A DNA stretch of 10,136 nt, counting the filler, from an uncultured virus (IMG/VR IMGVR_UViG_2061766007_000922) (lineage: Duplodnaviria > Heunggongvirae > Uroviricota > Caudoviricetes). It is 3 parts of one record of this genome, joined end to end, with 100 filler letters (N's around TTAATTAATTAA, not from the genome) between each part and the next. Parts side by side here need not be neighbours in the genome. Positions count along the whole stretch, not along the records: positions 8,839 to 10,136 come from IMGVR_UViG_2061766007_000922; 2 more parts are not named here. The stretch is one strand, 5' to 3'. Shown here in pieces: positions 1 to 10,136 of this stretch. A program made the translations under genes and the position numbers. Within the stretch, counting starts at the first letter, position 1. Every line of letters begins with the position of its first letter. The notes beneath the pieces are model-generated. The model made no database searches, was not told the origin of the DNA, and was given only the letters and a program-made list of their open reading frames with translations.

Positions 1-180
1 ACCGCGTTGCAAAAACTTCGATATAGTGTCGCTGTTGGCGTTGAGAATTGTCGCCTCCATCTCGTTATCGTTGAAAACGCGTGAACGGACGCATCGTGCG
101 TCAATACGCAATGCCGAAACATCGACCTGCACCATGTCGCGGTTCTGTGCCACAAGGCGTACAACTCTACCCCAAGCCAT
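1..180 (-). CDS. Putative baseplate hub protein, N-terminal part (runs off window start)
   Basis: Not in the ORF track. Reads MAWGRVVRLVAQNRDMVQVDVSALRIDARCVRSRVFNDNEMEATILNANSDTISKFLQRG from ATG at 180 with a GGAG RBS, overlapping the stop of the upstream baseplate gene. Function is inferred from its position after tape measure, Dit-like and small baseplate genes. Confidence 0.6.
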   Translation of the reverse strand, partial: MAWGRVVRLVAQNRDMVQVDVSALRIDARCVRSRVFNDNEMEATILNANSDTISKFLQRG

Positions 181-373
181 TAGCCTTCTCCCATGCCTTC
201 AAGTCGTTCTCGTCGATGTAGAACAAGCCCCATGAATCGCCAATAGCGTCATAATCGGAAAGGGGCTTGCCCTTGCCTTCGGACAACGGAAGCGCGATTA
301 TATCGCCCTTTATCGGTGAAATGGCCCTGTGCTCGTACAATATTGGGAACCGCTCCGTAATGCGGAACATGCC
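167..373 (-). CDS. Small phage baseplate protein (Pam3 gp18-like), C-terminal fragment, allele 1
   Basis: MFRITERFPILYEHRAISPIKGDIIALPLSEGKGKPLSDYDAIGDSWGLFYIDENDLKAWEKANGLG*. Overlaps the sequence of the gene starting at 2809. Confidence 0.65.
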   Translation of the reverse strand, partial: GMFRITERFPILYEHRAISPIKGDIIALPLSEGKGKPLSDYDAIGDSWGLFYIDENDLKAWEKANGLG

Positions 374-383
374 NNNNNNNNNN

Positions 384-730
384 ACGTTGTCAGATGAAAC
401 AACGATGTCCCACGCCTTTGCGCGTTCGCTCCATNNNNNNNNNNCTTGACTTCGGACAACGGAAGCGCGATTATGTCGCCCTTTATCGGGGAAATAGCCC
501 TGTGCTCGTACAATATTGGNNNNNNNNNNAATGAATCGCCAAGAGCGTCATAATCGGAAATGGGCTTACCCTTGCCTTCGGACAACGGAAGCGCAATTAT
601 GTCGCCCTTTATCGGGGAAATAGCCCTGTGCTCGTACAATATTGGGAACCGCTCCGTAATGCGGAACATTCCAAGTTCACCGTTGTCAGATGAAACAACG
701 ATGTCCCACGCCTTTGCGCGTTCGCTCCAT
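384..730 (-). repeat. Three further near-identical internal fragments of the small baseplate gene (384-434, 445-519, 530-730)
   Basis: Each matches 167-373 or 2558-2809 with a few mostly synonymous or conservative substitutions. They are separated by N10 gaps. Confidence 0.85.
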
Positions 731-740
731 NNNNNNNNNN

Positions 741-1034
741 GTTCCAAACGACTCAAACGGATACCTCAAGCGAAGCCGCAAGCACGCCGAGAAAGCCTGG
801 TCCAGCATTGGCCTTGTAGGGACGCTTGCACCCGAAGTCGAGGAGCGTTGGCCCATATTACGCCTGGTCGTGGATATGGGCTTGCCCTTGAGCGAAGTCG
901 AGCGCATGGACCTCAACGACATCCGACAGCTAAATGCGGTCCTGGATATGCGAAGGGACCACGACAGCGCCGCGGATGCGTGGCAGGCCGAAAACGTGAA
1001 GAAATCACAGAAGGAACGCACCAGTGGTAATTGA
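741..1034 (+). CDS. Pre-tape-measure ORF, probable tail assembly chaperone C-terminal part (5' truncated)
   Basis: Open frame ending ...EERWPILRLVVDMGLPLSEVERMDLNDIRQLNAVLDM...TSGN*, overlapping the tape-measure start. This is the usual position of tail assembly chaperones. Confidence 0.55.
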   Translation, partial: VPNDSNGYLKRSRKHAEKAWSSIGLVGTLAPEVEERWPILRLVVDMGLPLSEVERMDLNDIRQLNAVLDMRRDHDSAADAWQAENVKKSQKERTSGN

Positions 1035-2219
1035 GGAACTATACACTCGTCTCGGGTTCAAGGTAGACCCGAAGGGCATTGACAAGGCCAAGAGCTCACT
1101 CTCCAGCTTCAAGAAGTGGGTGGGTGGTATAGCCCTGGGAGCAGGTTTTGTGACTTTGGCAAAGACTGGCCTGGACGCTGCAATGACGATGGAGTCGCTG
1201 AATGCACAATTCACGGTCATGGCAGGGTCCGCAGAGCGTTCCCGAGACTTGCTTGCCGAGATTTCGGACTTTGCCGCAAAAACGCCATTCTCGAAGTTGG
1301 GGCTAGCGGACGCTAGTAAGACGCTCATGGCGTTCGGTCTGGAAGCCGACAATGTTGTCCCGACGCTCAAGATGCTGGGAGATGTCGCTGGAGCCGACCA
1401 GAACAAGCTAAATGGCCTCGCATTGGTGTTCGGACAGATACAAAGCACCGGCAAGCTCATGGGCCAGGATTTGCTCCAGCTCATAAATCAAGGATTTAAC
1501 CCGCTCACCGAAATATCGAAGCAGACCGGCATTTCTGTTGCGAAGCTGAAAGACGCGATGGCGCATGGGGCTATTTCCGCTGACATGGTGACTGCCGCGT
1601 TCAAGTCCGCGACAAGCGAGGGCGGTCTCTTTTACGGAAATCTCGAAGCACAGAGCCAAACGCTTCAAGGTCGTATTTCTACCTTGAAGGACAATTTCGT
1701 AACCGCCTTGCAGAACATGGCCGAGGCGTTCATGCCGCTATTGAAGGCTGGAGTCGATATGCTTGTCGCGTTCGACTGGACCCCGATTGTGGCAAGCATC
1801 CAGTCCGTCGGCGAAGCCATGAGCACGCTTCCAGAGATGCTGGAAACGATTGCGACCTGGGCCCGCCGTCTCGCGCCGCTGGTGTATGCCGTTTTCGCTC
1901 CTCGCATAAACGCCATGGTTATGCAGTATGTAGCGTCTATGCGGTCAGCGATTATGTCGTCGGGTATCTTTGCCAGAGTCCAAGGCGTTGTGCAACGCGC
2001 GGCGCTTGCAAGCGGTGCCGCCATGGGATACCAGGTGACGGCCATCGGGCTCCTAAAGTCCGCGATGTTTAGCCTGAAGGCGACCGCGGTTTCGTCGTTC
2101 AAGGCGATAGGGCTTGCCATGAAAACGGCACTCGGCCCGATAGGTATTGCGCTGATGGCGATTGAAGGCTTCGTCGAGGCGTACAACTATTTGAGCGGGA
2201 AGGCCGAACGGGATGCCAC
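1024..2219 (+). CDS. Phage tail tape measure protein, allele A (3' truncated at gap)
   Basis: N-terminus MVIEELYTRLGFKVD. Tape-measure domain motifs include FAAKTPFS, LKMLGDVAG, LALVFGQIQSTGKLMGQDLLQL and GGLFYGNLEAQSQTLQGRISTLKDN. The track ORF continuing to 2421 is a fusion across the gap. Confidence 0.9.
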
Positions 2220-2229
2220 NNNNNNNNNN

Positions 2230-2269
2230 AATTCCGGGCCTCCATCCTTATCTGTCTACCCCATACCAT
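2230..2269 (-). CDS. Baseplate hub start, divergent allele (fragment)
   Basis: MVWGRQIRMEARN aligns with MAWGRVVRLVAQN at 180 and has the same overlap with the upstream stop. Confidence 0.6.
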
Positions 2270-2486
2270 TCGCCACCTTCCAGTTCGCCACATCTTCGGG
2301 AGAAAGCCAGAAAAGACCCCAGGACTCGCCAAGCGCGTCATACTGGCTCAATGGCTTTCCCTTGCCATCGGAAAGAGGGAGGGCGATAATGTCGCCGTCG
2401 ATGGGGGAAATCGCCTTGTGAGAGAAAAGGATGGGCCAGCGCTCGACAATCCTGAAGGCGCCTATTTCGCCACGCTCCGAAGAAAT
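2256..2486 (-). CDS. Small baseplate protein, divergent allele (5' truncated)
   Basis: ISSERGEIGAFRIVERWPILFSHKAISPIDGDIIALPLSDGKGKPLSQYDALGESWGLFWLSPEDVANWKVANGMG* is colinear with allele 1. Confidence 0.75.
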   Translation of the reverse strand: MSSERGEIGAFRIVERWPILFSHKAISPIDGDIIALPLSDGKGKPLSQYDALGESWGLFWLSPEDVANWKVANGMG

Positions 2487-2557
2487 NNNNNNNNNNTAGA
2501 GAACGCAAGGCGATGGAACGAATAGTAGTCACCGTGTCCGTTCCGTTNNNNNNNNNN

Positions 2558-2809
2558 ATTGCCTTCGAACAACGGAAGCGCGATTATGTCGCCCTTTATC
2601 GGGGAAATGGCCCTGTGCTCGTACAATATTGGGAACCTCTCCGTAATTCGGAACATGCCCAGTTCCCCGTTGTCGGATGAAACAACGATGTCCCACGCCT
2701 TTGCGCGTTCGCTCCATACCAGGCGCAATGTCATTACAAGCTGTTCTGGAATAAGTACGCTTACGGTCTGGTCTGCACTTACGGAAGGATTAAACGGAAT
2801 ACGCAACAT
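2558..2809 (-). CDS. Small phage baseplate protein (Pam3 gp18-like), N-terminal part
   Basis: MLRIPFNPSVSADQTVSVLIPEQLVMTLRLVWSERAKAWDIVV with a GAGG RBS, directly downstream of the Dit-like gene. The IP...Q...L.W...W pattern is typical of this family. Confidence 0.65.
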
Positions 2810-2819
2810 GGTAAAAGCC

Positions 2820-3497
2820 TCACGGAACTATTTTGCCTATGATAAGTTGATTCTTGTCGGCATCGCTCGGCTCCGCAGCTACCTTCTGTCCGTTGTTCAC
2901 GCCGACCGCCGCAGAACGGTTTATGCCGGACTTCATGTCCTTCGGCTGAACCGGCCCCGATACTACAGTCTCCGTTAGGCTTACCGTCTGAATCTGCCGG
3001 AAATTTATCTTTATTTCGAGCGCTTCGCCTGTTTCTCCGTCTCGATCAGTCTCGATGTCAGTAATGACTACGTTGTCGTAAGTTTCGAGCGATGTAACGA
3101 TCTTGACGGTCTGTTTCTTGTCCATCAAGTCCTTCAAGTCGTTCCATGCGTCTCTAGCGCGGTTCTTGAGATGGTCTTTCCATTGCGCCATGTTCATCAA
3201 TGTCTCGGCGTTCTGTTTTTCATCGTCGATTTTCTGGACGTGCTTCAATGAATGGTTAGACACAAGAGCAGTGAGTGAGCCTTCGCGGAGCTGTAGATAA
3301 ATGCCATCGCTAACAGCGCGCCCGTCCTGTAACGGATTCTCCGTCACTACGGCATGTTTCGAATGGTTCTCGTCAAGTATAAGGTCAATGTCAATTTCGC
3401 CTACGCTGTAGCCTTCTTTCGGGTAAAAAAGGCTTGTAGGTATAAGAGACTTAATGTCGAGCCTGTCGCCAAAAATAGAATTGAGTACGCTAACCAT
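2820..3497 (-). CDS. Dit-like phage baseplate/tail initiator protein
   Basis: Complete 225 aa with a GGAG RBS, directly after the tape measure. Motifs IDLILDENHS..AVVTENPLQDG..VSD and VKIVTSLETYDNVVIT...LEIKINFRQIQ. Confidence 0.75.
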   Translation of the reverse strand: MVSVLNSIFGDRLDIKSLIPTSLFYPKEGYSVGEIDIDLILDENHSKHAVVTENPLQDGRAVSDGIYLQLREGSLTALVSNHSLKHVQKIDDEKQNAETLMNMAQWKDHLKNRARDAWNDLKDLMDKKQTVKIVTSLETYDNVVITDIETDRDGETGEALEIKINFRQIQTVSLTETVVSGPVQPKDMKSGINRSAAVGVNNGQKVAAEPSDADKNQLIIGKIVP

Positions 3498-3506
3498 GAC
3501 CCGCTC

Positions 3507-4406
3507 CTAGATTGTAGTTATGAAGGCTTCCTTGAGCTTTGTATTGAAGGCGGCATCGAAAGCCTGTCGGGAAATATCGCTAATGTTGAACTTGCGCGTG
3601 TTGTCCTCGACCGCCTTCGTGTTCTTTTTCGTCGATTTAGAACTTTCGTTTAGCGCCTTCGTCATTTCGGCGATTTGCTTTGCCAAGTCGGAACTGCCGG
3701 ACAACGGAGACTTGACTACACCAGCCTTTACTTCAAACTCCATGCCGGTCTTTTCCTTGTAAACATCCTTCAATGCGTTTACAAAGGATTCTCGTTTACG
3801 GATGTTCATCTGTAAAGACTCAAGTTCCTTTGACGCTTCTTTTCCTTCGTCGCCACCCATAGCGGCACGCTCCTGCAGTTTCTTAGCCCTAGCCTTCATT
3901 CCTTCCTGCTGGACTACAACTTCGCTAACAACCTGTTCGCGTGTCTTTTGTCCCTTGGCTACGTTCTGCGCTATATAGCGTCTTGCGGATTCCCGTTGTT
4001 CCTCCGTTGCCTTTTCCCTAGACTTTCCTTCAAGCCAGTTGTAAGCCTCTACAAAACCTTCGATAGCGATCAACGCAATACCGATTGGACCTAGTGCCGT
4101 TTTCATGGCGATTCCGATAGACTTTATACCGCCAACGGCAATGCCCTTGAAACTTGTAAAAGACAAAGTAAGATTGCTGAAAGCCGTCATTCCGGCTTCT
4201 GCCGCCCTTGCAAAAGACGTTACCAAGGTCCTCTGCAAATCCCTTGTCGCAAATGCTATCACGGCGATAGAAAGACGCCTAACCCATGTAATGACGGTCT
4301 CGAACGGAATTGATGTCAAGGCGTTTCCGAAAGATTTTACCGTTTCGACAATGGGTGTCCAATCATACGAAACAAGCATATCGACGCCGTTCTTTAGCAG
4401 CGGAAG
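3507..4406 (-). CDS. Phage tail tape measure protein, allele B, C-terminal part (5' truncated)
   Basis: Frame is open to the gap (LPLLKNGVDMLVSYDWTPIV...). Shares GVDML..DWTPIV and AMKTALGPIGIAL.AIEGFVEAYN with allele A and is followed by the Dit-like gene. Confidence 0.85.
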   Translation of the reverse strand, partial: LPLLKNGVDMLVSYDWTPIVETVKSFGNALTSIPFETVITWVRRLSIAVIAFATRDLQRTLVTSFARAAEAGMTAFSNLTLSFTSFKGIAVGGIKSIGIAMKTALGPIGIALIAIEGFVEAYNWLEGKSREKATEEQRESARRYIAQNVAKGQKTREQVVSEVVVQQEGMKARAKKLQERAAMGGDEGKEASKELESLQMNIRKRESFVNALKDVYKEKTGMEFEVKAGVVKSPLSGSSDLAKQIAEMTKALNESSKSTKKNTKAVEDNTRKFNISDISRQAFDAAFNTKLKEAFITTI

Positions 4407-4416
4407 NNNNNNNNNN

Positions 4417-4458
4417 AGTAGCGAGTAATGCCACGGTCATGATCAATTTGGTTCTCAT
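4417..4458 (-). CDS. Start of putative exported protein, allele 2 (fragment)
   Basis: MRTKLIMTVALLAT after a GGAG RBS; duplicate of 4540-4581. Confidence 0.5.
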
Positions 4459-4539
4459 TGAATTTTCTCCTTTATTTTTTGCAGTTCTTTGAACGGAATA
4501 ATCTTTTCCAGGTATTGGCAGGCATGCCANNNNNNNNNN

Positions 4540-4581
4540 TGTGGCGAGCAATGCCACGGTCATGATTAATTTGGTTTTCAT
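4540..4581 (-). CDS. Start of putative exported protein or lipoprotein (fragment)
   Basis: MKTKLIMTVALLAT has a basic N-terminus plus a hydrophobic stretch, like a signal peptide. GGAG RBS and ATGA overlap with the upstream stop. Confidence 0.5.
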
Positions 4582-4796
4582 TGAATTTTCTCCTTTATTT
4601 TTTGCAGTTCTTTGAAAGGAATAATCTTTTCCAGGTCTTGGCAGGCATGCCAAGGGTTAATCCAGCGGTTAATCATGAGGACAAGTTGTACATCGCTCGG
4701 GCATTCGTTCTGGTGATCCATGCGATGAGGAGCTACAATTGCATACAGCTTCTTTGCTTTTTCTAGACGCTGTTTATCATATTCTGTTAGCGCCAT
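4578..4796 (-). CDS. Hypothetical phage protein (72 aa)
   Basis: Complete ORF MALTEYDKQRLEKAKK... tightly coupled to both neighbours. Confidence 0.7.
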   Translation of the reverse strand: MALTEYDKQRLEKAKKLYAIVAPHRMDHQNECPSDVQLVLMINRWINPWHACQDLEKIIPFKELQKIKEKIQ

Positions 4797-4839
4797 TGTT
4801 TACCGTTCCTTCTTGAAAAATAGTTTTCCNNNNNNNNNN

Positions 4840-4990
4840 TTTTGGCCTGTTCCTTATGCTGCAAATTTTCGTAATTGTCGTTTGTAAGACTCTTTGCGAT
4901 GTCAATTAACTGTCTTGCATGTTCAAGTATATTATTGCAGTAGTACTTTGTATTGCTCCAATCTACTCTATTGTATTCTGTTAGCGCCAT
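4840..4990 (-). CDS. Hypothetical protein, alternative allele sharing the MALTEY start (3' truncated)
   Basis: Same upstream sequence and first six codons as 4578-4796, then diverges. Confidence 0.6.
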
Positions 4991-4993
4991 TGT

Positions 4994-5364
4994 TTACCGT
5001 TCCTTCTTGAAAAATAGTTTTCCTTCTGGAGTTATCCATAATGACGGCCTGTTTCCGTCCGCCAGTTCGTTGGCGTTTTCGTGGCACAGCTTGAGCCATT
5101 GAATTGTGTTCTTTGCGACTACTTTCGCCTTCTTGTCCTTTACCATGCCTTCGGCTTGCTCGATAAGCATGCGAATTGCGGCCCTGTAGCCTNNNNNNNN
5201 NNAGCTAGCTCGTTAGCGTTTTCGTGGCACAGCTTGAGCCATTGAATCGTATTCTTTGCGACTACTTTCGCCTTCTTGTCCTTTGCCATGCCTTCGGATT
5301 GCTCAATAAGCATGCGAATTGCGGCCCTGTAGCCTTCCATGAAGGCGATGTTTATGCGTTGCAA
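4994..5364 (-). CDS. Hypothetical phage protein, present as two overlapping allele fragments (4994-5192, 5203-5364)
   Basis: TTG start with a GGAGG RBS. Composite sequence MQRINIAFMEGYRAAIRMLIEQ...CHENANELADGNRPSLWITPEGKLFFKKER*. Confidence 0.7.
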
Positions 5365-5492
5365 ATCTTCACCTCCGTTATTTTTTCCCTAAATCCGTTT
5401 GCGCAGCATTCGCATAACGGCACGAACCCGCGCATCCATCGCATGCGATACTCCTTGCACTTTCGTTCACGTCTGCACCACCAGCAATTCAT
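5352..5492 (-). CDS. Small Cys-rich protein (46 aa), possible zinc finger
   Basis: Not in the track. MNCWWCRRERKCKEYRMRWMRGFVPLCECCANGFREKITEVKICNA* fills the gap between two genes, has a GGGGA RBS, and has a homologous C-terminus at 8680-8738. Confidence 0.65.
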   Translation of the reverse strand: MNCWWCRRERKCKEYRMRWMRGFVPLCECCANGFREKITEVKICNA

Positions 5493-5495
5493 GCG

Positions 5496-5942
5496 TCATT
5501 CCCCAGTGTGGATAATGACCGGCTTTACATCGCCTTCTATGGCTCGAATAGCGTCAAGTAGTGCATCTTCCAGGTCAAGATCAACGGCGCATTTTCTATC
5601 AATCGAAGGCCTGCAAGCCGCNNNNNNNNNNAGAATAGCGTCAAGTAGTGCATCTTCCAGGTCAAGATCAACGGCGCATTCTTTAGCGTTTGATGGCCTG
5701 CAAGCCGCCTTGGCGTAATCGTACACGCCTACAGCCAAACGAGCGCCATCCGGCAAAGTATAGNNNNNNNNNNCGTTTGATGGCCTGCAAGCCGCCTTGT
5801 CGTAATCGTACACGCCTACAGCCAAACGAGCGCCATCCGGCAAAGTATAGCCGACAATCGCATGGTCGAAATTATCCGGAAGAAGGATTGCCTTGCCTTC
5901 GATGACTTCAGCCGCCTTGAGTATCATTTCTCGTTTATTCAA
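5496..5942 (-). CDS. Hypothetical phage protein, split over overlapping allele fragments
   Basis: TTG start at 5942 after GGAG. Composite MNKREMILKAAEVIEGKAILLPDNFDHAIVGY...VGVYDYDK...GDVKPVIIHTGE*. The FD.AI.G...VYDYDK pattern resembles a common uncharacterised phage family. Further start fragments lie at 5974-6008 and 6505-6554. Confidence 0.65.
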   Translation of the reverse strand: MNKREMILKAAEVIEGKAILLPDNFDHAIVGYTLPDGARLAVGVYDYDKAACRPSNXXXXYTLPDGARLAVGVYDYAKAACRPSNAKECAVDLDLEDALLDAIXXXXAACRPSIDRKCAVDLDLEDALLDAIRAIEGDVKPVIIHTGE

Positions 5943-6274
5943 TCTGAACTCCTTTTTTAAACANNNNNNNNNNGCGGCGGCCTTCATTATTTTATCGCGA
6001 ATACTCAACTTTGAAACCTCTTTTTTTTGCATATAAAATTAGATTTTGCGCGTGCGCATGAAACTTATTTCTTTATTACAAAAAACTTACCGATTTCTGG
6101 CCCATGCCTCTCACTGGTGCAAATCCCAGCGGTGAGTTTATAGACAAAAGTCAATAGGTAAAACAAAATTTTTTCATTTTTTTTCTATGCAGCCTCCTTT
6201 TGCGTTTTCTTCATCGACCTTCTTGCNNNNNNNNNNTGTCATTTGTCTACCTCTTTGTTTTTGGTTTTCGTTTC

Positions 6275-6309
6275 GTCTATAATATACATAATTTATAGAC
6301 AAAAGTCAA
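6275..6309 (-). promoter_or_regulatory. Sigma70-type promoter with overlapping inverted repeat (candidate operator)
   Basis: TTGACT (6309-6304), 17-nt spacer, TATATT (6286-6281), with an A-tract upstream. Inverted repeat GTCTATAA-N10-TTATAGAC at 6275-6300. Downstream GAGG RBS and ATG at 6242. Confidence 0.75.
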
Positions 6310-6342
6310 TAGGAAAAACAAAATTTTTTCATTTTTTTTTTT

Positions 6343-6494
6343 CTATGCAGCCTCCTTTTGCGTTTTCTTCATCGACCTTCTTGCCTTGGCGCGGTATTCC
6401 TTGAGCCAGGCATCCATGGCGATGTGGGCCTTCTCGCTCGGCTTTATATCGTCCTTGTCCTCGTCGGCGTAGAATTGCCCCAGGGAACCGTCCG
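6343..6494 (-). CDS. C-terminal fragment of a phage protein, possibly PcfJ-like
   Basis: DGSLGQFYADEDKDDIKPSEKAHIAMDAWLKEYRAKARRSMKKTQKEAA*. The end is duplicated at 6185-6226. PcfJ resemblance (GQFY...P...W) is from memory only. Confidence 0.45.
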
Positions 6495-6634
6495 NNNNNN
6501 NNNNTTGCCTTCGATGACTTCAGCCGCCTTGAGTACCATTTCTCGTTTATTCAATTTGAACTCCTTTTTTACACATAAAACTAGAATATGCGGAGGGCGC
6601 AAGAAATTACTTTTTTATTACAAAAACATTACGT

Positions 6635-7362
6635 TCAAAAAAGAGACTGCTGGCAGTCCTTTTGCGCTCCATCGTCGTAGAATCGCCCCATAAGCTCGCG
6701 ATATTCGTCTGGAGTGCCGTTGTAATATAGCCTTTCCTTGCATGTCTTTCTTGTGGCGCCTACTGACACTGACATGAGCTGCATTTTCTTGAATTCGGCA
6801 ACGCAAGTAAACGGGGCATCGTATTCGCTTAAAAATGCGTTGATTTTTAAGTCTTTTTTAAGCGACTTGAAAAGGTCGTAAAATCTATCGTAATCGAACT
6901 CGAAATCATACTTGTTCGTTCCCTTGTACGGAATGTCAAAATAGACAACATCAAATTCCTTATAGTCAATATCGAAAATATCCAACCGTTCCAACCGTTC
7001 CAACCGTTCCAACCGTTCCAACCGTTCCAACCGTTCCAGCCGATACAGGCGTTCGAGCTTTTGCAAGCGATTTTTATCCTCGCTATCGTAGGTATTTATC
7101 AGCGCGTGGAATTTCAGGAAAAACTTTCGCCGTTGATCGAGCGTGTCGGCGGTAAGCATCTGCTCCGCAGCGAGCTTATATTCTTCTATCTGTTTTCCGT
7201 ACAGGTACGTCTTGCCATCGTTGCCGAACGAGGCACAATATTTGTTCACGCAGTCCTGAATGGTGAAGTCCCCGTTTTCGATGCGTTGTAGGCTATTTGC
7301 GAAATCGTCGCGGGTGCAGACGGGCGGGTGTTCGTATTCAATCTGCCCCTTGTGAATCAGTA
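6635..7362 (-). CDS. Dam-like DNA N6-adenine methyltransferase, C-terminal part (5' truncated)
   Basis: Frame is open to the gap at 7362. Catalytic-motif variant VVYFDIPY, followed by FDYDRFY and FLSEY, plus SFGNDG and an LER repeat as seen in this phage family. The SAM-binding motif is not visible. Confidence 0.75.
6981..7042. repeat. 9-bp coding tandem repeat (TCCAACCGT x6 plus one imperfect copy)
   Basis: Six perfect units at 6981-7034, encoding (LER)n in the methyltransferase. Confidence 0.95.
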
Positions 7363-7462
7363 NNNNNNNNNNNNNNNNNNNNNNNNNNNNNNNNNNNNNN
7401 NNNNNNTTAATTAATTAANNNNNNNNNNNNNNNNNNNNNNNNNNNNNNNNNNNNNNNNNNNN
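7363..7462. other. Artificial contig linker N44-TTAATTAATTAA-N44
   Basis: Exactly 100 nt, with stop codons in all six frames. Identical to 8739-8838. Confidence 0.95.
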
Positions 7463-7699
7463 CCCGTCCTTGTATTCGACGCAGATAGCCCAGCCGAATA
7501 TGTGCAGGAATCCGTTGATGAAGGTCAGCAGCCCGGTCGCCCTGAAAGCGTCCCATGACATTTCTCGAACTTCCTTATGGACGACAACCGGCGACACTTT
7601 ATTTTTGACGGCCGGACGCCCGGATTCCATCGAGACGAGCGCTTCCAGCACCGACTCTTTTGTAACTTCATCCATCTTCTCTACTTTGTTCTTTGTCAT
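7463..7699 (-). CDS. Hypothetical phage protein (3' truncated)
   Basis: ATG at 7699 after AAGGAG, with an ATGA overlap. Contains SWDAFRATGLLTFINGFLHIFGWAI, resembling a widespread uncharacterised phage family. Confidence 0.7.
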
Positions 7700-7757
7700 T
7701 GTTTCATCTCCTTTTCGTTCCAGGGGTTCTTGACTTCGATCGGCATCATGCAGGTGT
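7696..7757 (-). CDS. C-terminal fragment of the zinc-ribbon protein, alternative allele
   Basis: TCMMPIEVKNPWNEKEMKQ* matches the end of 8071-8372. Confidence 0.6.
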
Positions 7758-7767
7758 NNNNNNNNNN

Positions 7768-7821
7768 GTAATCGAGTCCGAGGTGTACGGCCTCGCAAAT
7801 CTTGAACGTGCGTTTATCCAT
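7768..7821 (-). CDS. Start of hypothetical protein (fragment)
   Basis: MDKRTFKICEAVHLGLDY after an AAGGAG RBS. Confidence 0.5.
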
Positions 7822-7825
7822 AATT

Positions 7826-7990
7826 TTAAAACTCCTTAAATTCTCCAGTTATGGTACTGGCTTTATATTTCTTTTTACACTTTGTACATTCAAACAAAGC
7901 GTAACCGAAAACTATTTGCATTAACGGTGATTTGTCAATCAAATCAAGATCACCGCCACAAGTACATGTTGGGTGTATTACGCGTTGCAT
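7826..7990 (-). CDS. Small zinc-ribbon protein (54 aa)
   Basis: Not in the track. MQRVIHPTCTCGGDLDLIDKSPLMQIVFGYALFECTKCKKKYKASTITGEFKEF* with an AAGGAG RBS and CxC...CxxC ligands. Confidence 0.7.
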   Translation of the reverse strand: MQRVIHPTCTCGGDLDLIDKSPLMQIVFGYALFECTKCKKKYKASTITGEFKEF

Positions 7991-8070
7991 TACTTCATCT
8001 CCTTATAGTTTATGTAGATCCGAAAAAGACTTCCAGCCACGTTCGGTGAACTGCGTGCTGTACACTTATC

Positions 8071-8372
8071 TTAATCCTTATTGTTCCAGGGGTTCTTGAC
8101 TTCGATCGGCATCATGCAGGTGTCGCAGATGCNNNNNNNNNNCCGTAGACCGTGCCGCAATTCGGGCAAATTGCGTTTAATTTCAGCCCTTCGCACATGG
8201 ATTCTATGCTTTCAATGTGGACTTTTCTAACGTTTTCAAGTCGCTTTATTTCGTCTTTTAGTTCTTCGTTTTCGCGCTTGAGGCTCTCGTACTCCTCAAG
8301 CGGTATTTCGCACGTCATGATTGGCGGGTGTTCAGCGCCGGGGTGAGTCGGGTAGTGTTTTGTGTTGCTCAT
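8071..8372 (-). CDS. Coiled-coil plus zinc-ribbon hypothetical protein (spans a gap)
   Basis: ATGA-coupled start MSNTKHYP..., coiled coil LKRENEELKDEIKRLE and CPNC, then after the gap ICDTCMMPIEVKNPWNNKD*. The join across the gap is inferred. Confidence 0.6.
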
Positions 8373-8680
8373 GCTGCTTGCTTCTCCTTTTTGCGTTGTC
8401 TGTAGTCCCTGTTCCACTTGGCTTTCCTCACCTTGTAGATGGGGTCGTCCTTGTGTCGTTGGCGATAATCTCTGTTGTGCTTCTTTACGGATTCGGGATG
8501 CTCCTTTTTCCATGCACGGGAAAGGGCTATGAAGTGCTGCGGGTCTTCGTCATAGTGCGCCTTGAAGATGCGCTTCTGTGCTGCCTTTTTGTTTCGGACA
8601 CGGGCGTCAGCGATAAGGCACGTTACGACCGTGCCGTGCATGGCGTTTCGCTCCGCTATCATTGATTCCCAATCTTGCAT
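8369..8680 (-). CDS. Basic hypothetical phage protein
   Basis: ATG at 8680 with a GGAGA RBS. Lys/Arg-rich, with NRDYRQR present twice. Confidence 0.7.
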   Translation of the reverse strand: MQDWESMIAERNAMHGTVVTCLIADARVRNKKAAQKRIFKAHYDEDPQHFIALSRAWKKEHPESVKKHNRDYRQRHKDDPIYKVRKAKWNRDYRQRKKEKQAA

Positions 8681-8738
8681 TACTTGCTCTCCGTTATCTT
8701 GTCCTTGAATCCGTTTGCGCAATTATCGCACAGGGGAA
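8680..8738 (-). CDS. C-terminal fragment homologous to the 46-aa Cys-rich protein
   Basis: SLCDNCANGFKDKITESK* versus PLCECCANGFREKITEVK. TAATG coupling to the next gene. Confidence 0.65.
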
Positions 8739-8838
8739 NNNNNNNNNNNNNNNNNNNNNNNNNNNNNNNNNNNNNNNNNNNNTTAATTAATTAANNNNNN
8801 NNNNNNNNNNNNNNNNNNNNNNNNNNNNNNNNNNNNNN
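8739..8838. other. Artificial contig linker N44-TTAATTAATTAA-N44
   Basis: Same 100-nt linker as 7363-7462. Confidence 0.95.
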
Positions 8839-8941
8839 TTTTGAGATATGCGCGCATATCCTCCCATCCGTCGCAGTCCTCTTTTATCCAGTGCTGATGA
8901 TTTTCAATAATCTTCTTTAGTTCTTCTTCGGTGTATTGCAT
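8839..8941 (-). CDS. Pentapeptide-repeat protein N-terminus, allele 1 (truncated)
   Basis: MQYTEEELKKIIENHQHWIKEDCDGWEDMRAYLK matches the leader that precedes A(D/N)L repeats in phage pentapeptide-repeat proteins. GGAGA RBS. The repeats themselves are not in view. Confidence 0.7.
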
Positions 8942-8965
8942 ACAACTTTCTCCGTTAAAATTTCG

Positions 8966-9016
8966 AGGCTCCTGCGGGACTCGAACCCGCGACCACCGTT
9001 AGACATGAGTTACGGT
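8966..9016 (-). tRNA. 3' half of a second allele of the tRNA-like element
   Basis: 8967-9016 is identical to 9139-9188, but the discriminator base and trailer differ. Confidence 0.6.
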
Positions 9017-9026
9017 NNNNNNNNNN

Positions 9027-9113
9027 CATGTTATCCCATCCATCGCAGTCTTCTTTTATCCAGTGCTGATGATTTTCAAGAATCTTCTTGAGTTCTTCTT
9101 CGTTGTATAGCAT
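9027..9113 (-). CDS. Pentapeptide-repeat protein N-terminus, allele 2 (truncated)
   Basis: MLYNEEELKKILENHQHWIKEDCDGWDNM with a GGAGA RBS. Confidence 0.7.
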
Positions 9114-9137
9114 ACAAATTTCTCCGTTAAAATTTAG

Positions 9138-9226
9138 TGGCTCCTGCGGGACTCGAACCCGCGACCACCGTTAGACATGAGTTACGGTTATTCACACCAA
9201 GCTCTACCCAACTGAGCTAAGGAGCC
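9138..9226 (-). tRNA. tRNA-like gene (89 nt) with atypical anticodon region; isotype undetermined
   Basis: Acceptor stem GGCTCCT/AGGAGCC, T8A9, D arm GCTC-AGTTGGGTA-GAGC, T arm GCGGG-TTCGAGT-CCCGC. There are 38 nt between D and T arms with no canonical anticodon arm, and no encoded CCA (A-CTA). Confidence 0.75.
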
Positions 9227-9231
9227 GTTTA

Positions 9232-9412
9232 CAAGCCGACCCGGAAGTAAACTCGGGAAACAGTGTTCTCTGGGTCGGCTTGGTGGCCACCGCGAGGCAT
9301 CAACAATGGAGATTCCACAAGTCTTCGTAGTACAATGCATTGTCCTATGCTGATTGTGTAATCGTCACGCGGCGGCCTTCGCCGTGGGCTAAAGTTGGGC
9401 TCGCACGGCGAA
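9232..9412 (-). ncRNA. Candidate structured RNA: three adjacent GC-rich stems
   Basis: Inverted repeats at 9232-9245/9269-9282, 9285-9294/9368-9377 and 9378-9386/9404-9412 fill the space between the HNH-like gene and the tRNA-like gene. Confidence 0.5.
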
Positions 9413-9421
9413 AACTTTGAG

Positions 9422-9949
9422 TTACGATTTAAAAGAATTGTAATTTATAGTAACAATAGAAATTTTAAATTTATCTTGTATAAAATCACAATGCTTTTTT
9501 ATCGTGTCTAGTTTTTCATTTGTTTCCTTTACATAAAATATTTTTTCTTTTTTGTTGTAAATCAACATTTGATGCAACTGTGCATGAATCCTTCTGTTTA
9601 AAGCAATCACGCTGAATAAATCGTTGTAATTCCAATGATGCAGTTCTATTTCATTATTAAGCTTTCCTAATTTTCTTTCTATACTAATTCGAACTGAATT
9701 TGTATTTTTATCGTTATGTTGTTTTTTGCCAGAGTAAAGCCTTTTATATTTTTCTCGTCCTCTTTCCCTTTCCTTTTCTACATAGTTTGCATCTTTTGAT
9801 TTTATACTGTAATTTTTTTGAACGTCTTTCTTTGCACATTTCTTGCATTTGTTAAGGTGTCCGTCACCCATTTGAGGGTGGCTATAGAACTCCGTTATAG
9901 GAAGTAAACGGCCGCACTTGAAACATTTTTTGAATGTCACTTCCATCAT
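9422..9949 (-). CDS. HNH-like endonuclease with N-terminal zinc finger
   Basis: KKCFKCG...[18 protein letters not shown], then IELHHWNY...[18 protein letters not shown]. Visibly AT-rich relative to its flanks. Confidence 0.65.
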
Positions 9950-9961
9950 GTGCGGCCTCCA

Positions 9962-10136
9962 TCAAAAGGGAGATCTTCGCAATCGTCGGCTTGCTGCTGG
10001 TCGTACTCGTTCTGGAACGAGTTGCGCTGCTGTTGAGCCTGCTGACCGTACCCGCCTCCGTTCTGCGTTCCGCGTGGCGTGAGGAGCTGGAACGTGTCGA
10101 GGGCTACTTCCGTTGTGTACCGCTTCTGTCCGTTCT
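9962..10136 (-). CDS. ssb: Single-stranded DNA-binding protein, C-terminal part
   Basis: Not in the track. NGQKRYTTEVALDTFQLL, a Gly/Gln-rich linker and the acidic tail DDCEDLPF*. Confidence 0.93.
   Translation of the reverse strand, partial: ERTEAVHNGSSPRHVPAPHATRNAERRRVRSAGSTAAQLVPERVRPAASRRLRRSPF

Follow-up and report, generated by a model that had tools for sequence, protein, structure and literature searches.

We analyzed a structured RNA element encoded on the minus strand of a 10,136-nucleotide (nt) stretch of DNA from an uncultured virus of the class Caudoviricetes (IMG/VR IMGVR_UViG_2061766007_000922). We refer to this whole stretch as the window and count positions along it. The predicted core of the element is three abutting helical domains, which we call P1, P2 and P3; together these measure about 200 nt in the window, and their length in homologues is 195-233 nt. 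The conservation of the element, its structure, its strand and its linkage to SSB and tRNA genes are directly supported. With a probability that we put at roughly 0.55, the element is an uncatalogued, phage-specific noncoding RNA (ncRNA) that would be a product of an early RecT/SSB operon and would be matured by tRNA-processing enzymes; the processing and the role are what we infer from the observations below. The element and the tRNA-like gene that follows it are laid out as follows.

9412-9378, minus strand: P1 hairpin (inverted-repeat search)
9377-9285, minus strand: P2 domain (minimum free energy (MFE), covariance model (CM) and RNAalifold structure)
9284-9281, minus strand: linker ACCA after P2 (sequence)
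9282-9232, minus strand: P3 hairpin (inverted-repeat search)
9231-9227, minus strand: spacer UAAAC between P3 and the tRNA-like gene (sequence)
9226-9137/9138, minus strand: tRNA-like gene, 90 nt, or 89 nt by Rfam (ARAGORN, Rfam)

A preliminary description of this region, made from the sequence, had proposed a 9-bp stem, a 10-bp ACCA stem, a 14-bp stem with one mismatch and a tRNA-like fold, spaced 0-5 nt apart and starting just past the stop of an HNH-like gene. We find all four where they had been placed. The stop of the upstream open reading frame (ORF) is at 9424-9422 and P1 begins 9 nt beyond it. P2 follows P1 with a gap of 0 nt, P3 overlaps the ACCA linker by 2 nt, the last two bases of the linker falling within the P3 5' arm, and 5 nt (UAAAC) separate P3 from the tRNA-like gene, so that the gaps are indeed 0-5 nt. 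The absence of a minus-strand U tract, which had also been described, is borne out: there are no terminator-like sites in 8839-10136 on either strand (shuffled sequences have a mean of 1.5), and no domain is followed by a G+C-rich hairpin with a U tract, since P1 continues into AAGG and P3 into UAAAC.

Structure, covariation and strand

The minus strand of 9130-9425 has a predicted folding energy of -112 kcal/mol, compared with -89.6 ± 5.2 kcal/mol for 200 shuffles (z = -4.28), none of which folded as well. The plus strand of the same region folds with z = -5.85. As both strands fold well, folding energy alone cannot choose the strand.

The P1 stem is a perfect 9-bp inverted repeat (9378-9386 and 9404-9412, UUCGCCGUG and CACGGCGAA) with 17 nt between its arms. 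It is extended by G-C, G-C and C-G pairs with a bulged C and a bulged A, leaving a 9-nt apical loop, CCAACUUUA. The basal stem of P2 in the window has 10 bp that are paired in the MFE structure, formed by GGCCGCCGCG (9377-9368) and CGCGGUGGCC (9294-9285) and including one G·U. Within it, the inner helix P2a is formed by GA(C)GAUU (9366-9360) and AAUCUC (9314-9309), and is continued by AC (9357-9356) with GU (9318-9317). The apical part of P2, at 9355-9319, is variable, and the 3' segment at about 9308-9296, CAUUGUUGAUGCC, is conserved and unpaired. The P3 stem consists of 14-nt arms at 9232-9245 and 9269-9282 that are 93% complementary, with one mismatch.

In addition to the window’s copy and to a distant relative, L042, we found 17 further distinct full or partial copies of the element, located on related phage contigs, on metagenome contigs and in two prophage-bearing genomes. 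RNAalifold, applied to two MAFFT alignments, gave the same skeleton as the single-sequence folds. We evaluated covariation using an unfitted MAFFT alignment of 15 copies (A3) and an alignment of 19 rows fitted to a CM (A4), which includes an incomplete copy from contig L071 as well as L042. In A3, 95.6% of 567 cells pair, as compared with 36-48% after a shift of the partners by 1-3 columns. Both sides have changed in 19 of the 38 pairs of A3, and none of 500 shuffles reaches the alignment’s value on any of five measures. In A4, whose rows are fitted to the model, 95.4% of cells pair and both sides have changed in 28 of 38 pairs.

The individual helices follow the same pattern. Helix 1, belonging to P1, is 97% paired, and its pair 17:45 is seen as U-A, G-C and C-G. 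In helix 6, belonging to P3, both sides have changed in 8 of 12 pairs of A3 and 93% of cells pair; the window’s P3 stem is wholly unlike that of most homologues in sequence, with its pairing kept, and across the family P3 is a 12-14-bp hairpin. The sharpest single comparison for compensatory change is that between the window and homologue L080: these share an identical 73-nt P2 interior, yet 5 of the 10 basal pairs have changed on both sides. The P2 basal helix of the family has 12 bp, and most copies have a symmetric CGAA/CGAA internal loop in its middle, in place of which the window, L080 and L049 have Watson-Crick pairs. In most copies GA(C)GAGU pairs with RCUCUC to form P2a, and pairing of CC and GG extends it. 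Three types of P2 interior differ in length: that of the window and L080 has about 73 nt, that of L054 and L066 about 75 nt, and that of most copies about 100 nt.

Sequence conservation is concentrated in single-stranded regions. The 17-nt loop region of P1, CGAGCCCAACUUUAGCC, is nearly invariant in the family, with the loop consensus C(C/U)AACUUU(A/U), and it varies at only 3 positions in those copies that were found without using the loop. The unpaired segment between P2a and the 3' strand of P2 is conserved as described above. The 3' side of the P3 loop carries the motif CCCGUAAUU(U/C)GC, with the consensus CCCGUAAUUYGC, of which the window holds a local version, UUUCCCGAGUUUAC. Loops that are constrained in sequence and sit on freely drifting stems suggest loops that bind something, and we think it likely that the conserved loops, rather than the stems, are the working sites.

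We considered three further roles for these motifs and rejected them. For a pseudoknot in which AACUUU of the P1 loop would pair with AAAGUU of the 5' flank, only some copies have the required complement, and there is no covariation. Pairing of the P1 loop with the D loop of the tRNA (AGUUGGG) is available only in the window and partly in L009, and it involves a motif typical of D loops in general. Finally, as a Bacteroidales -7 box (TAnnTTTG), the P3 loop motif has the wrong spacing, and its TTTG is often TTCG.

Although both strands can fold, the alignments distinguish between them. On the minus strand, A3 has 25 G·U cells and 7 A·C cells, while A4 has 26 and 10. Since a G·U on one strand is an A·C on the other, the excess of G·U favors the minus strand, which is the sense strand of the tRNA. 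The flanking genes and tRNAs are on the same strand as the element. These observations bear on the idea that the stems act at the level of DNA, e.g., as hairpins of single-stranded DNA in an origin, priming site or recombination site, or else that they belong to an antisense RNA of the plus strand. That the plus strand folds at least as well, that the element lies within a RecT-SSB module and that the 7 A·C cells of A3 would be G·U on the plus strand are all in keeping with this idea. However, it conflicts with the preponderance of G·U just given, with the fixed spacing of 4-5 nt to a minus-strand tRNA, with the presence of contigs of the element in RNA libraries (see below) and with the fact that helices 3 and 6 accept U·G where the DNA complement would have a mismatch. 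We consider it very improbable.

A still simpler explanation is that the stems arose by chance, or that the region is conserved because it encodes a short protein. A 50-aa ORF (9340-9188, minus strand) does overlap the region of the element. However, the longest open frames differ in strand and in frame among the copies, so that no frame is kept open across them and the coding explanation fails. The z-score of -4.28 and the compensatory changes seen among 17 copies argue in the same direction, and we regard both forms of this explanation as refuted, with next to no probability left to them.

Downstream tRNA-like genes and a possible route of maturation

The tRNA-like gene of the window is called as a 90-nt tRNA-Phe(gaa) by ARAGORN, and it matches the full Rfam tRNA model (RF00005, positions 1-71) at 9138-9226 on the minus strand with 46.6 bits, relative to a gathering score of 29. 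It has a canonical acceptor stem, D arm and T arm, and its middle exceeds the expected length by 15 nt (32 nt, as against 17 nt in the Rfam model). The anticodon stem proposed by ARAGORN is weak, with U·U and U·G, a U at position 37 and a loose variable arm of 21 nt, and a competing ACCGU/ACGGU hairpin is visible. A host origin of this gene was considered and rejected, as no tRNA in the genomes G001 and G061, which carry copies of the element, matches it beyond a generic D arm.

A tRNA or tRNA-like gene follows every complete copy except L042 after a spacer of 4-5 nt, whose consensus in the family is N(C/A/U)AAC. Some of these partners resemble ordinary tRNAs, i.e., Ser-GCU (L010, L011), Thr-UGU (L084) and an Ile-like tRNA with AAU (G001). 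The other partners belong to an odd tRNA-like family that shares the acceptor, D and T arms and in which the center ranges from absent to about 85 nt. This family has 7 distinct members of 60-136 nt that score 43-53 bits with Rfam, and ARAGORN rejects all but that of the window. Forms of 60 nt that lack an anticodon arm are found after five copies (L071b is the second copy on contig L071).

875-934 of L066: 60-nt tRNA-like gene
3491-3550 of L079: 60-nt tRNA-like gene
1081-1140 of L080: 60-nt tRNA-like gene
3560-3619 of L081: 60-nt tRNA-like gene
after 1372 of L071 (L071b): 60-nt tRNA-like gene

These 60-nt forms have a covarying 3:70 pair, and the four that were scanned (L066, L079, L080 and L081) score 43-53 bits with the Rfam tRNA model; ARAGORN predicts no tRNA in any of the loci that hold a 60-nt form. 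In the forms of 95-136 nt (L060, L009/L049 and L065), a covarying stem is capped by a CUAUGNN loop, and the extra arm is long. The preliminary description had allowed for a single RNA motif of roughly 280 nt comprising all four domains. The portion of this proposal that holds is a non-tRNA core of about 200-230 nt (P1-P3); the fourth domain is not a fixed part, and is instead an exchangeable tRNA or tRNA-like gene.

The odd class of tRNA occurs in SSB-linked phages at L009 1702 (minus strand), in L060 and in L065, and also at L091 3045-3139, L094 3043-3134, L095 3046-3137 and L096 3763-3854. In its members the acceptor, D and T arms are normal, and 7 inserted nt (like NCAAAAG) follow the D stem. 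A covarying stem carries the anticodon-like loop CUAUGNN, with AUG as the apparent anticodon, and the extra arm is long. For L091 and L094-L096, ARAGORN calls four-base anticodons. We also observed a long conserved hairpin, AUCCCGAUGGCGGC ... GCCGCCGGAGGGAAA, with a variable middle, directly 3' of the tRNA-like gene in L009, L060, L065 and L079; this hairpin is absent from the window.

Cleavage by RNase P requires the module formed by the acceptor stem, T arm and elbow of a tRNA. As this module is the only downstream part that is always kept, and lies at a fixed distance of 4-5 nt from P3, it suggests a model of maturation by RNase P. In this model, the element would be transcribed as the tail of an early recombination operon (RecT ... 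SSB) and released by the tRNA-processing machinery of the host, with RNase P cutting at the 5' end of the tRNA or tRNA-like gene. The cut would place the 3' end of the RNA just behind P3, which would then shield it from exonucleases, and the single-stranded motifs would bind a protein or an RNA of phage or host.

The idea of an RNase P handle follows the logic of MALAT1 and its tRNA-like product mascRNA, as far as the consulted parts of two publications describe it (PMC8457004, PMC4824109). The primary transcript of MALAT1 has a conserved 3'-terminal triple helix (ENE) and yields the tRNA-like mascRNA (PMC8457004), and cleavage by RNase P is crucial in its 3'-end processing (PMC4824109). The likeness to MALAT1/mascRNA, and to MEN-beta/menRNA, is that a structured ncRNA is followed by a tRNA-like element without a working anticodon arm; on the MALAT1 side, the RNase P cut makes the 3' end of the upstream RNA, and a terminal structure protects it (PMC8457004, PMC4824109). 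In the phage family, an acceptor stem, T arm and elbow of a tRNA or tRNA-like gene are directly downstream of all complete copies but L042. There are important differences, however. MALAT1 is eukaryotic and nuclear, its terminal structure is a triple helix and not a hairpin, and there is no homology in sequence or fold. Moreover, some partners of the phage element are genuine decoding tRNAs, and the RNase P cut is, in the phage case, one that we infer.

The same processing enzymes could act differently, such that the array is cut into pieces. In this alternative, P1 would be a stabilizer at the 3' end of an mRNA, P2 an RNA of its own of about 97-125 nt and P3 the leader of the tRNA. The ends of an excised P2 could resemble those of tRNA or 4.5S RNA, with a 5' G-C pair, a 12-bp helix and an unpaired A-C-C that a CCA-adding enzyme could complete. 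The cutting of the array into pieces seems to us rather unlikely. Nonetheless, several features fit. The first pair of P2 (49:170) is G-C in all 15 aligned copies, the 12 bp of the basal helix equal the length of a stacked acceptor and T stem, and the nucleotide after the helix is A in 15/15 copies, within ACC in 13/15, with the window encoding ACCA. The precursor of E. coli 4.5S RNA, too, is an RNase P substrate whose terminal helix is followed by ACCC. However, the linker is AAC in L080, AACC in L049 and absent in L042, so these copies lack ACC, and the ACCA that the preliminary description had singled out is not conserved in that form. In addition, P2 has no T-loop-like motif, an RNA-library contig (X15, see below) crosses all junctions, and P1 and P2 are separated by 0 nt, as are all three helices in L042, which fits coaxial stacking within one RNA. 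Between a cluster of processed RNAs and a single motif, which the preliminary description had left side by side, the evidence does not decide.

A further conception combines the two parts of the locus. The 60-nt stubs, and the frames in which foreign inserts replace the anticodon arm, might be modules for processing and stability in early RNAs that do not decode, i.e., a natural tRNA-scaffold system. P1-P3 might then be a trans-acting effector whose invariant loops, early in infection, capture a host factor involved in tRNA or RNA processing or serve as a decoy for a tRNA-targeting defense nuclease. We find it improbable that the tRNA-like genes are such scaffolds, and equally so that P1-P3 acts with them in this way.

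Distribution and genomic context

We sought copies of the element using the 17-mer of the P1 loop, the SSB protein, nhmmer, a covariance model (R1) and patterns independent of the loop. The scans with the loop 17-mer gave the following results.

viral contigs: 3 loci returned, 3 true
metagenome contigs: 30 loci returned, 11 true, with 7 new distinct sequences
genome contigs: 12 loci returned, 1 true, which is the distant L042

The 19 other metagenome loci are chance matches, e.g., to a stretch that codes for a B12-binding domain. Starting from the SSB protein, nhmmer finds the element in 6 of 22 loci, always 0-400 nt downstream of SSB and on its strand; 4 of these copies (L079, L080, L081 and L084) were new to the set and were found without the loop. 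With nhmmer we also detected a second, full copy on metagenome contig L071. Of the two copies on this contig, the first, at 679-829, breaks off beyond the 5' strand of P2 and has an ORF behind it, and the full one is at 1145-1372. Seven copies are on IMG/VR contigs (L009, L010, L011, L079, L080, L081 and L084).

Other searches delimit the family. Among 151 host-family genomes, model R1 finds the element in G001 and G061 only, both of one genus, and it has no match at E ≤ 1 in the 16 SSB loci that lack an nhmmer match (L085-L100). None of the 25 loci returned from viral contigs by a pattern made of the P2 5' strand and a P1 arm is true, as these are chance or coding matches. Among the gapped patterns independent of the loop, type A returned only 4 contigs that were already known, and type B returned 9 loci with no CM matches. 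BLAST against 50,697 deposited phage genomes gave no match. In public data, 37-49% of sampled words of the DNA are found in bovine/gut metagenome runs from five studies, not counting the study that may be its source. The family is therefore narrow and phage-borne, and is confined to a few related gut phages of one Bacteroidales-type host genus. What the distant L042 retains is the P1 loop, the arrangement of three hairpins without gaps and a CCGUAA motif in the third loop, while its stems and interior are otherwise unrelated to the family.

SSB is the only constant upstream neighbor of the element. It is 0-400 nt away, with 13 nt between the SSB stop and P1 in several copies. In several homologues SSB abuts the element, or another gene occupies the place of the HNH ORF seen in the window. 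Because SSB is often directly next to P1, we take the HNH ORF of the window to be an insertion into the spacer between SSB and the element. In the nearest genome, G001, the same locus is on a 53-kb phage-like contig, where it closes an early block on the minus strand that comprises genes for a methyltransferase, a RecT-like annealing protein, an HNH protein, SSB and a PHROG-419 protein.

The position of the element behind SSB admits another explanation, in which it is an end module that functions only in cis. It would block 3'-to-5' exonucleases and so stabilize the early SSB mRNA after removal of the tRNA by RNase P, and may insulate the tRNA from the mRNA under translation. The element does occupy the 3' side of the SSB operon, a tRNA or tRNA-like gene comes immediately after it, and there is no intrinsic terminator. 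Also consistent with this explanation are SSB-related phages that lack the element (L091, L092, L094, L095, L096 and L100) and have other stable hairpins in the same slot, which is about 90 nt between SSB and the tRNA and ends in the same CAAC leader. The slot between SSB and tRNA thus seems to be a general site for a folded RNA together with a tRNA. However, a simple stabilizer does not need about 200 nt with near-invariant loops and with an interior that stays the same as the stems change (as between the window and L080), and L042 retains the loop motifs without any tRNA. A function purely in cis is, in our estimation, unlikely.

The neighboring features in the window are the following.

10134-9946, minus strand: C-terminal part of the SSB gene, with the tail ...DDCEDLPF (phrog_44, E = 2.6e-09)
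9949-9422, minus strand: HNH/EndoVII-like endonuclease ORF, 175 aa (PHROG endonuclease, EndoVII and HNH matches, best E = 7e-09)
9413-9421, minus strand: 5' flank between the ORF stop and P1, CUCAAAGUU (sequence and alignment A3 columns 1-16)
9017-8955, minus strand: incomplete second copy of the tRNA-like gene's 3' half, interrupted by a 10-N gap (tandem duplicate)
9113-8955 and 8941-8783, minus strand: N-termini of pentapeptide-repeat ORFs, cut by N runs (homology to the full ORF in L049)

The PHROG matches uphold the HNH label that the 175-aa ORF had been given, and the ORF has no Pfam match. Likewise, the pentapeptide-repeat label stands, as the full homologue of the short ORFs in L049 is an obvious pentapeptide-repeat protein. 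The 5' flank is A-rich, followed by UUUUC opening P1, and a similar flank is present in homologues despite their differing upstream genes. The window is a stitched draft, with a contig linker at 8739-8838 (an N run with TTAATTAATTAA in its middle) and a 10-N gap at 9018-9027. It contains a tandem duplicate of 162 nt with 93% identity (8855-9016 versus 9027-9188), whose unit joins the tRNA-like gene's 3' half to the beginning of the pentapeptide-repeat ORF; the number and arrangement of these units in the draft may not be the real ones. Positions 1-8738 match scattered parts of the G001 phage contig with 73-98% identity and in a changed order (compared with G001:C21 and G002), and also match a 12.9-kb viral record with up to 100% identity, which indicates mosaic phage genomes.

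The element is represented in RNA libraries. Library X15 includes a 364-nt contig that starts 13 nt past the tRNA-like gene, crosses a divergent P3, then P2 and P1, and ends at 9434, and two contigs of library X17 cover P2 and P1, or P1, of relatives. The depth of the X15 contig (13.2 for the element versus 2.7-5.5 for SSB contigs) was not used, as contig depth cannot rank genes.

Several considerations weigh against our interpretation of the element as an early ncRNA released by tRNA-processing enzymes. The RNA-library evidence consists of assembled contigs from two studies, which carry no strand, ends or abundance and might reflect DNA carry-over, and the X15 contig that bridges all domains fits an unprocessed precursor or DNA as well as it does a processed RNA. 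A sigma-70 scan identified no promoter, although such a scan is uninformative for promoters of the Bacteroidales type. On the 53-kb G001 phage contig, no loop has a complement of at least 10 nt other than the element’s own antisense. L042 has no tRNA behind the element, so the tRNA is not obligatory. Other considerations relate to the alignments. Most copies were found via the 17-mer of the P1 loop, and the invariance of this loop is thus partly a matter of ascertainment; the structure tested on A3 was derived from that same alignment; and the copies are close kin, so that the shuffle controls overstate significance. Finally, in the P2 interior the same segments can enter rival pairings: a long apical hairpin, an apical hairpin with a second one, or pairing of the conserved 3' segment with segments upstream.

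Relation to known RNAs and significance

We compared the element with known RNA families. In a cmscan of the whole window with Rfam 15 at the gathering score, only the tRNA part is recognized, and in ten homologous loci all 9 matches at the gathering score are to tRNA. At E ≤ 10 over 8839-9500, the only match on P1-P3 is noise of 14.3 bits (HCV_SL1412), and the G001 copy behaves alike. The preliminary description had proposed a cluster of processed RNAs or one unrecognized motif, and this proposal is sustained to the extent that the region is a conserved structured RNA locus tied to a tRNA and absent from Rfam. It had also named what would tell against such a locus, i.e., a known Rfam family, a lack of compensatory changes or a conserved reading frame. 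In the event, Rfam sees only the tRNA, compensatory changes are many and no reading frame is conserved; the searches of Rfam, of deposited phages and for homologues that it had proposed yielded no family, no deposited-phage match, and copies that covary strongly.

Specific families were considered individually. GOLLD, which the preliminary description had brought up, and ROOL are structured ncRNAs of phages and prophages with no assigned function, often beside tRNA genes. They are about 3-4 times larger than the element and give no cmscan match to P1-P3 even at E ≤ 10, so the element is not a member of either and the likeness is one of context only. The best score for YrlA (RF02553) is 15.4 bits, as against 69, and is on the partial tRNA copy at 8939-8999; a Ro-like gene is absent from the 18 ORFs of the scanned stretch, G001:C21 1-20000. 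The tmRNA model (RF00023) scores 16.9 and 11.7 bits, as against 47, on tRNA copies only, and ARAGORN predicts no tmRNA. In the T4 tRNA cluster, the stable RNAs known as species 1 and 2 are co-transcribed and co-processed with phage tRNAs. These RNAs are located inside the tRNA cluster, whereas the element lies behind SSB, and we liken them by description only.

Within the literature we searched, no description of the P1-P3 fold was found. A set of 10,006 covariation-supported candidate structured RNAs (csRNAs) from IMG/VR, some of them tRNA-like, has been published (PMC10690425; Fremin, Bhatt, Kyrpides 2023), and it derives from the same contig collection that holds 7 copies of the element. 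In supplementary files 3-6 of that study, four strings of the loop motifs are absent (PMC10690425). Similarly, none of 6 contig ids is in file 3 and none of 3 is in file 4, although alignments or positions may sit elsewhere in that study’s materials.

Phages with hosts of a different bacterial phylum offer a parallel. In Cluster A mycobacteriophages (L5, D29 and StarStuff), the early Pleft region is reported, in the portion of the study available to us, to include an abundant, stable noncoding region of about 500 nt, and the early noncoding DNA to be toxic when cloned (PMC5712189). In L5, we noticed that the 3' end of this region has a weak fold resembling a tRNA, which scores 22.1 bits with the tRNA-Sec model (E = 0.18).

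L126 334-429 (Z18946 ~51133-51228), minus strand: L5 fold with T arm CGGGUUCGAUUCCCG and an acceptor-like stem, below the Rfam threshold

As far as that partial account goes, the likeness is that of an early, stable, structured phage ncRNA with a tRNA-like fold at its 3' end. The Cluster A RNA differs in the phylum of its host, shows no sequence similarity, is located at a genome end, has its own promoter and is not behind SSB. Judging by the sequence comparisons made here, the fold of the element and its pairing with anticodon-less tRNA stubs appear to be new, as far as we have checked, while structured phage RNAs that are linked to tRNA genes, and perhaps cut by RNase P, are already known as a kind.

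If our interpretation is correct, a new RNA fold would join the few phage ncRNAs that are linked to tRNAs, nearly all of which have no assigned function. The idea that phages cut and stabilize other RNAs by means of tRNA-shaped handles and host RNase P, in parallel to MALAT1 in vertebrates, would become accessible to direct tests in bacteria, and the conserved loops would be clear targets for mutation and pull-down experiments. Because the family is narrow, any biology that these RNAs have may be specific to their lineage.

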